Origin: Escherichia coli
Lineage (GTDB): Bacteria; Pseudomonadota; Gammaproteobacteria; Enterobacterales; Enterobacteriaceae
Length of the DNA stretch: 23,492 bases
Direction: 5' to 3' (one strand)
Assembly (NCBI RefSeq): GCF_003334765.1
Contig: NZ_QOWT01000046.1
Position 1 is the first letter of the stretch, and each line of letters starts with the position of its first letter. This document shows positions 776-6,407 of the stretch, in pieces. The position numbers were made by a program, and so were the translations under genes. A model generated the notes under the pieces. It searched no databases. It saw only the letters and a program-made list of their open reading frames with translations, and was not told the origin of the DNA.

Positions 776-867
776 TTTGTTTTACCTCATTACAGATTTA
801 AGGGTGAACAAATCCCTGCCATTGCTGGCATATAAGAATGAAACCGGATATTTATTACGGAACTGTT

Positions 868-1059
868 TTAAAGACCTGCCGGGATTTCGTTATTATCCTG
901 GTGAATAACTTTATCGACCGGGTAACAGTTACCGGGAATTTTCTGTTCGGTTGCTGCAGTCACACACTCCTGCATTGTCCTGTGAACACTGACTGCAATA
1001 TCAACTGGCTCTCCGGAAACAAGAAAAACTGTCAGAACAAGTGCAAATGCTGTATTCAT
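868..1059 (-). CDS. Small protein with hydrophobic N-terminus (63 aa), YdfD-like by size and position
   Basis: ATG at 1057-1059 overlaps the TGA stop of dicB (ATGA coupling); AGGA SD 8 nt upstream; product MNTAFALVLTVFLVSGEPVD... has a signal/TM-like N-terminus. The longer track ORF (868..1113) is trimmed to the SD-supported start. Confidence 0.55.
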   Translation of the reverse strand: MNTAFALVLTVFLVSGEPVDIAVSVHRTMQECVTAATEQKIPGNCYPVDKVIHQDNNEIPAGL

Positions 1060-1244
1060 TGTGCACATCCTTTTTGTATCGGACGTAAACGGGCCAGCAT
1101 TGAAAGAATGCATATTTTATTTAATAACTCCCGTTCGTGTTTTCTCTTGTTAATGGCATCTTCAGTAAATACAGGGTTACTGATAGTGACACCAATTTCA
1201 AAACAACCTTCAGACGTATTAACGTTTGGTAATAACGTTTCCAT
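1056..1244 (-). CDS. dicB: Cell-division inhibitor DicB (62 aa)
   Basis: Internal Met of track ORF 1056..1349 with GAGGA SD 7 nt upstream; product METLLPNVNTSEGCFEIGVTISNPVFTEDAINKRKHERELLNKICILSMLARLRPIQKGCAQ matches my recollection of DicB in sequence and length; sits immediately downstream of DicF as in the Qin dicB operon. Confidence 0.75.
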   Translation of the reverse strand: METLLPNVNTSEGCFEIGVTISNPVFTEDAINKRKHERELLNKICILSMLARLRPIQKGCAQ

Positions 1245-1413
1245 TATCGCGTCCTCAACAATGAATTTTGTGATGCGGTGCCTGGTGCCTCCAGGTGACG
1301 TTAACCAGTTAACAATTAACGCCGGATACAGAGAATCCACCCATAACACTGTTTTTGGTTTTAACTGTTCCGCGTGCGCTGAGCCGCATTCACCGCATCA
1401 CAAAATTCACTTT

Positions 1414-1471
1414 AAAAAGGGCGGCAGAGCAGTCACGGAGTAAAACTGATACCGCCAAACGTCACCAGAAA
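1414..1471 (-). ncRNA. dicF: DicF small regulatory RNA (53-nt core 1419-1471 plus U-tract)
   Basis: Reverse complement of 1419-1471 reads TTTCTGGTGACGTTTGGCGGTATCAGTTTTACTCCGTGACTGCTCTGCCGCCC, which matches DicF as I recall it, followed by TTTTT; located just upstream of dicB. Confidence 0.85.
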
Positions 1472-1802
1472 ATTGATAACAGAGGGCGTTGCAGCGGGGT
1501 TGTCGCTTAAGCGTATGGTCAACCTGACAACCCGGTGTCCTCAACGGGGAAGGAATAACCCCGCCATACTTACCGCCGCGCCATTTCGCGGAGTGCCACA
1601 ACCGGAAGCGCACGGTCGAACTAAATTTAACGACACCGTACAGAGAGACCAATTTCGCCGTGCGCTTTCGCGTTATGCCCTGACTTTTCAGGGACATATC
1701 CTTTCAGTAAACTGTCAGTGCCGGATGTTCACCCGTGTCCGGCGCACGCACTCCACCTGACCCGTGGAGAACTCCTTAATTACCAACCCTCAGGAGGGTG
1801 AA

Positions 1803-2081
1803 ATGGATAAAAAGCAAATTGAGGCCCTGCAATCTATTATTGAAAAACAAGATGAAGCTATCAGGATTCTTTCATATCGCACTGATATGATACTAAATAT
1901 GCTTTCTGCATTAACGGCTGCGCTTGGTGGTACAAAAACAAACGTATACCGCGAAGTTGTTATTCAACAGATAGATAAATTTGAAAAAACCATACCAGGT
2001 ATTAATGCTCATCTTGCAGAACAAGAGAAAGACCATGCTCTTATGGCAATTTCTTCAGTAGCTCTCCCGAAAGTTGAGTAG
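1803..2081 (+). CDS. Hypothetical small helical protein (92 aa), AT-rich, opposite in orientation to the surrounding operon
   Basis: ATG at 1803 preceded by AGGAGGG SD at about 5 nt; product MDKKQIEALQSIIEKQDEAIRILSYRTDMILNML...; visibly AT-rich; 3' end overlaps the convergent minus ORF 2041..2454 by 41 nt. Confidence 0.5.
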   Translation: MDKKQIEALQSIIEKQDEAIRILSYRTDMILNMLSALTAALGGTKTNVYREVVIQQIDKFEKTIPGINAHLAEQEKDHALMAISSVALPKVE

Positions 2082-2454
2082 TTTTAATTGTTGTTTTGAA
2101 ATAATCACTGCTTTCACATTTGAGTGATTTCATGGCAATCCAAATGCGGGCCTCTGTGCCTGCATTTGGTTCCAGTTGCTGTAGACGTTTTGCGTCTTCC
2201 AAAAGTAAGGCGATAATGTGTTTCAGCTTCTCATCATTTGCTTGATTCTTGTTTTCAGGCGAATTCTGTCCGCCGAATAGGCGCTTCTCTTCATACAGAC
2301 CTATAAAGGCACGACGCACGTTACCGGATATAGTATCGATGGTTTCTTTTTCTACGGTACTCAGGTCAAGAGTCGCCAGTTGAGAGCGAACCACATTCGA
2401 TGCCATTTCCTGGAATGGTACTGGTAAATCTTTAAATTCCATCGTCAACCTCAT
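2041..2454 (-). CDS. Hypothetical early-left-operon protein (137 aa)
   Basis: Complete minus ORF; its ATG (2452-2454) overlaps the TGA of the upstream ORF (TGATG coupling); a second in-frame ATG lies at 2440-2442. No recognisable motif. Confidence 0.5.
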   Translation of the reverse strand: MRLTMEFKDLPVPFQEMASNVVRSQLATLDLSTVEKETIDTISGNVRRAFIGLYEEKRLFGGQNSPENKNQANDEKLKHIIALLLEDAKRLQQLEPNAGTEARIWIAMKSLKCESSDYFKTTIKTTQLSGELLKKLP

Positions 2455-2687
2455 CAGTCAGTGTTTCTGGTTAACCAGCGACGCGCGCCAGCTTCAGTTT
2501 TAAACGTTTTGCTTCTGGTATACGTCATCGCGGTAAACGTGCCGTCCTGGTTGGGGAACACGCCACATACCAGAGATTCGTTGTTGCCAAGATTGAGCAT
2601 ATCCATGTTGACCTCATTTCCCCTTAACGCCGGGGTAGCGGAACAAAAACCTGCTGCATAGTTATTAAAGTTGAACCCTGCCGTCAT
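2454..2687 (-). CDS. Hypothetical small protein (77 aa, or 50 aa from the internal Met with GAGG SD); possibly YdfA/YdaF-like
   Basis: First minus ORF downstream of the repressor gene; internal start MDMLNLGNNESLVCGVFPNQDGTF... has a better SD than the first ATG. Family assignment is recollection only. Confidence 0.45.
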   Translation of the reverse strand: MTAGFNFNNYAAGFCSATPALRGNEVNMDMLNLGNNESLVCGVFPNQDGTFTAMTYTRSKTFKTEAGARRWLTRNTD

Positions 2688-2792
2688 GTTCTTACGCCTC
2701 GGGCTGGCTACTTAACCCCTGACCACTGCCTGGTAACTCGAAGTATTGCCCTGCATTCTGTGGGGCGGGGTGGGTTGGTATGAAAAGAAGGA

Positions 2793-2829
2793 TACCCATA
2801 GGTATTTAAAAAGTAAATACCTATGGGTA
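2793..2829. promoter_or_regulatory. Perfect 16-bp inverted repeat (TACCCATAGGTATTTA / TAAATACCTATGGGTA), candidate left operator and/or bidirectional terminator
   Basis: Arms at 2793-2808 and 2814-2829 are exact reverse complements; T-rich runs follow on both strands; lies about 40 bp past the repressor stop and upstream of the leftward operon. Confidence 0.5.
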
Positions 2830-2871
2830 AATTTTTGCGGTGTCTTAACTGGTGACTAGTTGTTTGGTGAG

Positions 2872-3291
2872 CTATGATGCGTTTTGTGCTTTCTTTTTAC
2901 GGATTTCTTCGTAGATCATATTGTAATACTGTTTTTTCTCTTCAAGAGTTTTTAATAATTTATCCGCTTCACTTTCTGGCAGTTCGTCTAAGAGATCTAA
3001 AAAAATACGTTGTCGTGGCGTTAGAACCCTTGTTTCATAACTGGAGGCTGTGTTCGTTGATGATGAAACGATACCATCCATCCATCCCCGGGGTAACCCA
3101 AAGGACTCTTCGATAATCTCCACCATATCATCAGCGATCCGTTTTTTTCCCTTTTTCCCCTCTGGGTACAACATTCTTGATACATAAGAAGGCTCGCGCC
3201 CGATCTTTCTGGCCACGTTAACCGCTTTACCATCGCATTTCTCATCACGAATTTTGATGAGTTGCTGTCGTCTAAATTCATATTTGTCCAT
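2872..3291 (-). CDS. Prophage repressor (cI/DicA-like HTH protein, 139 aa)
   Basis: Divergent from the Cro-like gene across an operator-bearing intergenic region; HTH-like segment KAVNVARKIGREPSYVSRML; C-terminal LPESEADKLLKTLEEKK resembles the DicA C-terminus as I recall it. Confidence 0.7.
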   Translation of the reverse strand: MDKYEFRRQQLIKIRDEKCDGKAVNVARKIGREPSYVSRMLYPEGKKGKKRIADDMVEIIEESFGLPRGWMDGIVSSSTNTASSYETRVLTPRQRIFLDLLDELPESEADKLLKTLEEKKQYYNMIYEEIRKKKAQNAS

Positions 3292-3391
3292 AGGTAAATA
3301 ATAGATGCGATTACCGCAAGGTAAACAACCTGTGGGTATTGACTTTTGTTTACCTGTGGGTATTCTTTGCTGTGTTTACTAAGGAGTAGCT
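3292..3391. promoter_or_regulatory. Divergent promoter/operator region (right-operator-like)
   Basis: Direct repeats CCTGTGGGTAT (x2); TTGACT, 16-nt spacer, TATTCT promoter-like elements facing the Cro-like gene; AAGGAG SD before the ATG at 3392. Confidence 0.55.
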
Positions 3392-3673
3392 ATGGAAGAA
3401 TTAAGAATATTTCTCAATTCTCTTTCGTCAGATGAACAGCGTATGTTTGCATGCGAGTGTGGTACCAGCATCGGTTATCTAAGAAAGGCATTGAGTAAAG
3501 GTCAAGTGTTAGGGGCATCGTTATGTGTCCTTATTGAGCGAGCCAGTAATGGTGAAGTTACACGTCAGCAACTAAGGCCTTTTGATTGGATGAATATTTG
3601 GCCCGAGCTGGAAGATACCAAAACGTTAACACAACCACTTTCTAGGAGCTTGATTCATGAAAATCAAGCATGA
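3392..3673 (+). CDS. Cro/YdaS-like HTH regulator (93 aa)
   Basis: Strong AAGGAG SD; first gene of the rightward operon; segment GYLRKALSKGQVLGASLCVLIERASNGEVTRQQLRP resembles the YdaS family by recollection. Confidence 0.7.
   Translation: MEELRIFLNSLSSDEQRMFACECGTSIGYLRKALSKGQVLGASLCVLIERASNGEVTRQQLRPFDWMNIWPELEDTKTLTQPLSRSLIHENQA

Positions 3674-5211: not shown

Positions 5212-6407
<1,196 letters not shown>

Follow-up and report, generated by a model that had tools for sequence, protein, structure and literature searches.

A DicF-dicB-ydfD cassette in the early-left operon of an Escherichia coli lambdoid prophage

We analysed a stretch of 23,492 nucleotides from an Escherichia coli contig (NZ_QOWT01000046.1, assembly GCF_003334765.1), referred to here as the window. 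Near its left end the minus strand carries a ydfA-like gene, a 137-aa gene, a non-coding leader, the small RNA DicF, a structured spacer, dicB and ydfD, with a repressor gene and a Cro/YdaS-like gene located beyond ydfA (Table 1). A first-pass annotation had placed a complete DicF and dicB cassette at 1056-1471. That interval delimits DicF through dicB exactly, but ydfD lies just outside it. The cassette is complete in the sense that DicF, dicB and ydfD are all intact, whereas the putative promoter, approximately 1.35 kb upstream, and the leader of approximately 330 nt had been left out of the description.

Table 1. Features of the operon and of the adjoining immunity region, with their positions in the window and the evidence by which each was assigned.
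Feature	Position	Strand	Basis
ydfD, 63-aa DUF1482 / lysis-protein homologue	868-1059	-	K-12 identity, Pfam, RefSeq annotation of matches
dicB, 62-aa cell-division inhibitor	1056-1244	-	NF049927, K-12 identity, phrog_1251
dicB Shine-Dalgarno, GAGGA	1252-1256	-	7 nt upstream of dicB ATG, read from sequence
Structured DicF-dicB spacer, 144 nt	1262-1405	-	Predicted four-way junction fold, STnc100 homology
DicF sRNA, 53 nt	1419-1471	-	Rfam RF00039, K-12 identity, fold
GC-rich non-coding leader, DicF precursor region	1472-1790	-	Conservation, hairpin, expected K-12 sites
92-aa opposite-strand gene within the operon	1803-2081	+	phrog_18692, 210 bits, full length
137-aa early-left operon gene, in place of K-12 ydfB/ydfC	2041-2454	-	phrog_1363, 153 bits
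ydfA-like gene, 50 aa, DUF1391, first in operon	2454-2606	-	tblastn, phrog_751
Putative operator pair at the PL position	2793-2829		Two TACC-N4-GGTA palindromes, 16-bp inverted repeat
Prophage repressor, 139 aa	2872-3291	-	phrog_5736 ('transcriptional regulator'), 234 bits
Divergent promoter / putative operator region	3312-3362		Exact TACC-N4-GGTA at 3312-3323 and 3351-3362
Cro/YdaS-like regulator	3392-3673	+	phrog_35, 83 bits; divergent from repressor gene

DicF was identified by an Rfam scan of the whole window. The family model (RF00039) covers 1470-1419 on the minus strand over its full length (positions 1-52 of 52), scoring 76.7 bits (gathering score 48; E 1.3e-15), and the segment 1471-1419 is identical to DicF of E. 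coli K-12 at 53 of 53 positions. The match to the 53-nt RNA reported on first reading is thereby confirmed. Because the RNA is base-for-base that of K-12, it shows neither a mismatch to the curated model nor any point difference that would abolish pairing with ftsZ, the two discrepancies that the first-pass annotation had named as counting against it. The exact 53 nucleotides recur in strain SCU-125 and in a chromosome of the K-12 type (L002, 2510-2562), and among viral contigs carrying the DicF core this allele is the commonest (75 of 120). RefSeq feature tables at dicBF loci list dicB and ydfD without a DicF feature, so that a scan with an RNA model is needed to see the sRNA.

The minimum free energy fold of DicF leaves nucleotides 1-15 (1471-1457) unpaired and places nucleotides 16-52 (1456-1420) in a stem-loop, which is followed by a tract of five U residues (1418-1414). 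This predicted fold is as expected for a terminator-ended, Hfq-type sRNA. By itself the hairpin is not unusually stable (z -1.82, matched by 10 of 200 shuffles). The 5' end lies within an AU-rich unpaired stretch (UCAAU/UUUCUGG) that suits RNase E. In K-12, pairing between DicF and ftsZ was demonstrated by compensatory mutations (PMC5069750); the 3' part of the RNA pairs with the ftsZ ribosome-binding site, and xylR, pykA and manX are also repressed (PMC5069750, PMC9438474). Pairing was predicted here with the K-12 ftsZ leader, the ftsZ, minC and manYZ genes of the host being located outside the window. In the predicted duplex, the DicF loop UUUUACUCCG pairs with the CGGAGAGAAA Shine-Dalgarno region of ftsZ. 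The energy of the whole-RNA duplex, -38.5 kcal/mol, is reached by 133 of 1000 shuffles and is not discriminating; the argument for ftsZ pairing therefore rests on identity to the K-12 RNA.

The dicB reading frame extends from an ATG at 1244 to a TGA at 1056. Its product matches NCBIfam NF049927 across residues 1-62 of 62 (130.6 bits, cut-off 100, E 1e-38) and phrog_1251 (137.9 bits), and it is identical to K-12 DicB at 56 of 62 positions (90%). The substitutions relative to K-12 are K2E, Q36H, V47L, L55P, M56I and P57Q, three of them clustered at positions 55-57. The start codon of ydfD overlaps the dicB stop codon (ATGA). YdfD differs from its K-12 counterpart at 4 of 63 residues (59/63 identical, 94%) and matches Pfam PF07358 (DUF1482) across model positions 1-57 of 57 with an E value of 4.1e-25; no NCBIfam model matched it. 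The hydrophobic N-terminus typical of a family of proteins of approximately 63 aa is present (MNTAFALVLTVFLVSG). These matches support both names given on first reading, where the two ORFs had been called DicB-like and YdfD-like. On the opposite strand, a 201-aa Cys-rich ORF (838-1443, plus strand) runs antisense to ydfD, dicB and the spacer; its plausibility is low, and it is most likely a mechanical ORF.

The activities of these products are known from K-12, where DicB directs MinC to the septum and prevents the entry of phages that depend on ManYZ (PMC10448788, PMC6832061), this exclusion working at low expression (PMC6832061), and where YdfD inhibits IspG and causes lysis (PMC8835842). The functions first ascribed to the locus, namely action of DicF on ftsZ mRNA, action of DicB through MinC and expression upon loss of the repressor, agree with this literature (PMC10448788, PMC6832061). 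The exclusion potential suggested for it would likewise correspond to the ManYZ-dependent exclusion of phages by K-12 DicB (PMC6832061).

Upstream of the cassette, the product of the ydfA-like gene is 84% identical to K-12 YdfA by tblastn and matches phrog_751 at 118 bits, and the 5' UTR of this gene is common to K-12 from approximately 35 nt upstream of the ATG. The 137-aa gene that follows gave no match to YdfB or YdfC and none in PADLOC. Its 3' end is overlapped by 41 nt by the 92-aa gene on the opposite strand, at a place where related prophages have an annotated hypothetical protein. This opposite-strand gene could interfere with read-through of the operon. Strain SCU-125 carries a different opposite-strand gene at this spot and K-12 carries none, and the spot therefore looks like a variable insertion point.

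The leader of approximately 330 nt and the 175-nt interval between DicF and dicB are collinear with, and nearly identical to, the ydfC-dicF-dicB region of K-12. Conservation of the leader amounts to 88-100% identity in about 100 distinct prophage and viral sequences, and in many phages the block of homology stops at 1788-1802, the edge of the leader. A long predicted hairpin occupies 1675-1599 (z -2.94), and leader variants swap whole hairpins for other hairpins. In an alignment of 98 sequences (88-100% identical), very few pairs show changes in both partners, and the consensus fold drawn from this low-diversity alignment competes with the DicF hairpin. As a known RNA family the leader was rejected, with no Rfam match at E<=1; across positions 800-3500, the matches at this threshold are DicF and STnc100 only, to which a narrower scan adds a weak chance match to tsr32. 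A 96-aa basic ORF (1407-1697, minus strand) was considered as an N-like protein and rejected, since 1-nt indels among its homologues break the frame.

In K-12, RNase III yields a 190-nt species and RNase E creates the 5' end of the 53-nt DicF, whereas the 3' end is formed either by the intrinsic terminator or by RNase III acting on read-through transcripts, which gives a 72-nt form (PMC10448788, PMC5069750, PMC9438474). By analogy, the 190-nt species, if it ends at 1419, would have its start at approximately 1608, which is the base of the predicted hairpin at 1675-1599, and position 1400 would be the 3' end of the 72-nt DicF. In this manner, about half of the K-12 processing scheme could be mapped onto the window sequence.

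The spacer between DicF and dicB is predicted to fold very stably, with an energy of -56.6 kcal/mol (positions 1262-1405; z -4.70) that none of 200 shuffles equalled. The predicted four-way junction is closed by a 15-bp helix pairing 1405-1391 with 1266-1280, and position 1400, the 3' end expected for the 72-nt DicF when the K-12 data are mapped here (PMC5069750, PMC9438474), falls in the 5' strand of this closing helix. Against the Rfam STnc100 family (RF02076) the spacer scores 37.7 bits (E 5e-6), below the gathering score of 47. A covariance model built from 37 distinct DicF-dicB spacers only (model R1) matches both STnc100 copies of the window, at 45.4 and 43.3 bits, whereas the next unrelated match reaches 11 bits. 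These comparisons point to the spacer as a relative of the STnc100 family, and not as a member of the family as curated.

Paired changes between the spacer and STnc100 are found in two shared helices, one reading GCAUGGUG/CACCAUG[C/U] versus AUGCGGUG/CACCGCAU, and the second CCGGG/CCCGG versus CCUGG/CCAGG. Of the cells in 49 distinct spacer rows, 97% stay paired, a count that is favoured by having derived the structure from the window sequence. In the same rows, most changes within the closing helix create G-U pairs, and both the length and the sequence of the central arm are variable. The spacer has in common with STnc100 (RF02076) and PasD the closing helix, a GGUGAAU motif, hairpin 1 and the UCACCNGGAGGCACCNGGCACC hairpin, but the 3' terminator hairpin found in STnc100 is missing from it. 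The spacer is also embedded in an operon as the 5' UTR of dicB, whereas STnc100 forms an sRNA gene of its own, located downstream of the stx site (PMC12370729). The shared motif was also considered as a put (putL/putR) antiterminator RNA of the HK022 type and rejected, model R1 giving a top score of 10.4 bits (E 0.8) across the complete HK022 genome. No link between STnc100 and dicBF was found in the searchable literature, the preprint on Pas sRNAs being silent on DicF and dicB and the OMV paper naming DicF once, in passing.

Together, these observations make the spacer a plausible RNase III platform that divides DicF from the dicB-ydfD mRNA. More tentatively, and with a confidence that stops a little short of even, we propose that it is a conserved STnc100/PasD-related RNA whose closing helix would serve as the RNase III site that makes the 72-nt DicF and releases a dicB-ydfD mRNA with a short leader, such that leader, DicF and spacer would act as one processing scaffold setting the ratio of sRNA to toxic protein. 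If correct, this reading would be relevant to the way in which a single transcript gives rise to both an sRNA and a toxic-protein mRNA. The STnc100-like structured spacer is the only element of the locus with some novelty; it may be undescribed, and it applies equally to K-12.

The immunity region of this prophage differs from that of the Qin prophage of K-12. The 139-aa repressor scores 24.5 bits against the DicA model, for which the cut-off is 101, and the tblastn match of DicA to it spans 46 C-terminal residues at 33% identity; no Pfam match was obtained for it. This protein is thus, as judged from its sequence, not DicA, with a resemblance limited to approximately the last 50 residues. Rem, DicC, YdfB and YdfC are absent from the window by tblastn, and the dicBF-type module, which would operate as that of Qin does, is placed under an immunity different from the Qin type (DicA/DicC/Rem). 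Since the repressor is not of the DicA family and a Rem-type antirepressor is lacking, the inducing signal may differ from that of K-12. The Cro/YdaS-like gene is annotated at related loci as a transcriptional regulator or as a member of the YdaS family.

A 12-nt palindrome, TACC-N4-GGTA, occurs in four exact copies in the window, where 0.14 would be expected, and all four flank the repressor gene. One pair is located between the repressor gene and ydfA, where the putative promoter of the operon lies. The other two copies are on the far side of the repressor gene, in a region that contains promoter-like hexamers on both strands and an additional copy with one mismatch (3327-3338). This layout around the repressor gene is that of the lambda OL/OR arrangement, and we infer that the operon carrying DicF, dicB and ydfD is silenced by the 139-aa repressor and expressed on its loss.

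The wider genomic context is that of a lambdoid prophage, with exo, xis and int on one side of the locus and the repressor, cro-like and CII/YdaT-like genes on the other. The window as a whole is a mosaic, of which complete genomes cover at most 78%. In its best annotated relative, the gene order is exonuclease, ydfD, dicB, [DicF], hypothetical genes, DUF1391 (ydfA), repressor, cro-like and YdaT/CII-like; it continues with replication genes, hokD, DUF968, RusA, the Q antiterminator and a DNA methyltransferase, and ends with tRNAs Ile-Arg-Arg, a SASA esterase, lysis genes, a two-gene insert and terminase. We conclude that the cassette sits in the PL-type early-left operon of a lambdoid prophage that resembles an Stx phage but is without stx. 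An IS5-family transposase gene (5280-6260, plus strand; NF033581, 367 bits) is located inside the replication region, and the prophage is therefore probably defective.

Comparison with the dicBF operon of Qin (ydfABC-dicF-dicB-ydfDE) shows the same gene order, the same ATGA coupling of dicB to ydfD and an exonuclease gene following, in addition to the identities of DicF (53/53), DicB (90%), YdfD (94%) and YdfA (84%). The window differs from Qin in that its immunity module is replaced, without DicC or Rem and with a repressor that is DicA-like only at the C-terminus, homology to K-12 starting only about 35 nt upstream of ydfA. It further differs in having the 137-aa gene and the opposite-strand 92-aa gene instead of ydfB and ydfC, and in that the downstream exonuclease gene, within the part seen, lacks the IS2 interruption. 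The same early-left position and the same trigger, loss of the repressor, characterize lambda Kil and other division inhibitors of PL operons, and the outcome is also the same, with FtsZ-ring function blocked and cells filamenting. Kil is nevertheless unrelated in sequence to the dicBF products, DicB acting via MinC and DicF being an antisense RNA rather than a protein. The same DicF family is found in the lambdoid, Stx-like prophages of EHEC O157:H7, whose chromosomes carry the cassette at 99% identity, in six places in one strain. DicF of EHEC is described as also activating pchA translation at low oxygen (Melson and Kendall 2019, as cited in PMC9438474).

The 621-nt cassette was matched in 4649 of 5426 complete E. 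coli genomes (~86%), the number of places per genome having a median of two and a maximum of nine. Isolated lambdoid phages, among them mEp460, Tritos, Evi and HannyBb, also carry it. A single genome, that of strain SCU-125, matches the cassette at 100% identity, and the coding sequences are annotated there as dicB and ydfD. The DicF-dicB-ydfD cassette is thus already known, very common and ordinary; finding it here changes nothing already known, and its value is one of annotation.

On this evidence, the locus is very probably a dicBF-type module, intact and situated in the early-left (PL-like) operon of an E. coli lambdoid prophage, and no sequence feature contradicts the dicBF identification. 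For this copy, identity, integrity and the arrangement of parts are established; molecular activities, processing sites and repressor control derive from experiments in K-12, from which we infer them here. In the lysogen, the 139-aa repressor would occupy the TACC-N4-GGTA sites at 2793-2829 and keep the operon silent. Upon loss of repression, a transcript would extend through the ydfA-like gene, the 137-aa gene, leader, DicF, spacer, dicB and ydfD and into exo. [quoted passage not shown] Hfq-bound DicF would then pair with the ftsZ ribosome-binding site and block FtsZ synthesis, in addition to repressing xylR, pykA and manX; DicB would bring MinC to the septum, depolymerising FtsZ rings, and would inhibit ManYZ-dependent entry of phage DNA; and YdfD would inhibit IspG, leading to cell lysis.

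The module may mainly serve the phage, as an early function comparable to kil that would stop host division and redirect sugar metabolism in lytic growth, with exclusion and any host benefit as side effects. To this possibility we assign an appreciable weight, though well under even. It would account for the occurrence of the same module in plaque-forming lambdoid isolates, where it sits in the early-left operon at the position of lambda kil, and for its expression only on derepression; it fits less easily with the ~86% of E. coli genomes that retain the module, often in decayed prophages such as Qin, a retention that suggests selection in the lysogen, or with an exclusion activity of DicB that works at low expression (PMC6832061). 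Phage-serving and lysogen-serving roles are not mutually exclusive.

We regard as improbable that the cassette is a silent relic, never meaningfully expressed in a defective prophage and without host phenotype. Although the IS5 transposase gene in the replication region and the antisense gene inside the operon could be signs of such decay, the three products are all intact, DicF does not differ from the RNA that is active in K-12, and the repressor, the putative operators and the ydfA 5' UTR are also intact. The K-12 operon is itself tightly repressed, with low DicF in exponential growth (PMC10448788), which would be in keeping with a relic; yet the equally defective Qin yields DicF in stationary phase and undergoes spontaneous derepression in a subpopulation (PMC10448788). 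That an ordinary intrinsic terminator resembles DicF by chance, and that the small ORFs are spurious, as the small size of the features and the modest hairpin (z -1.82, 10/200 shuffles) might suggest, is scarcely credible given the full-length Rfam match (E 1.3e-15), the 53/53 identity to K-12, the HMM E values of 1e-38 (DicB) and 4e-25 (YdfD) and an order conserved across thousands of genomes.

Read as an intact dicBF-type module, the cassette marks the early-left operon of a lambdoid prophage, and it predicts filamentation, and possibly lysis, upon inactivation of the prophage repressor, as well as DicB-type exclusion of ManYZ-dependent phages.

Several other features of the window were observed. 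The segment 14049-15051 (plus strand) contains three tRNAs (Ile-Arg-Arg in a related record) and two tandem STnc100 copies, followed by a gene for a SASA/NanS-type esterase. The STnc100 copies were located by Rfam, across the whole window, at 14374-14564 and 14842-15051 (136 and 165 bits). In Stx2 phages, STnc100 is found 75 nt downstream of stx2 (PMC12370729). The layout of tRNAs, STnc100 and esterase is that of Stx phages, but the window has no stx genes between them, leaving an 'empty' toxin site. A hok/sok type I toxin-antitoxin locus is present at 9350-9674 (plus strand), with a sok RNA scoring 112.6 bits and hokD annotated in a related record. The interval 19597-21226, between the lysis genes and terminase, is occupied by two convergent genes that form a candidate anti-phage defence insert; one product belongs to the sce7726 family (184 bits; PADLOC 'cll'), and the other is 'beta'/PD-Lambda-2_C-like (110 bits). 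Rfam IS009 is matched over its full length at 23273-23471 (plus strand, 225 bits), within the terminase region at the right-hand end of the window.
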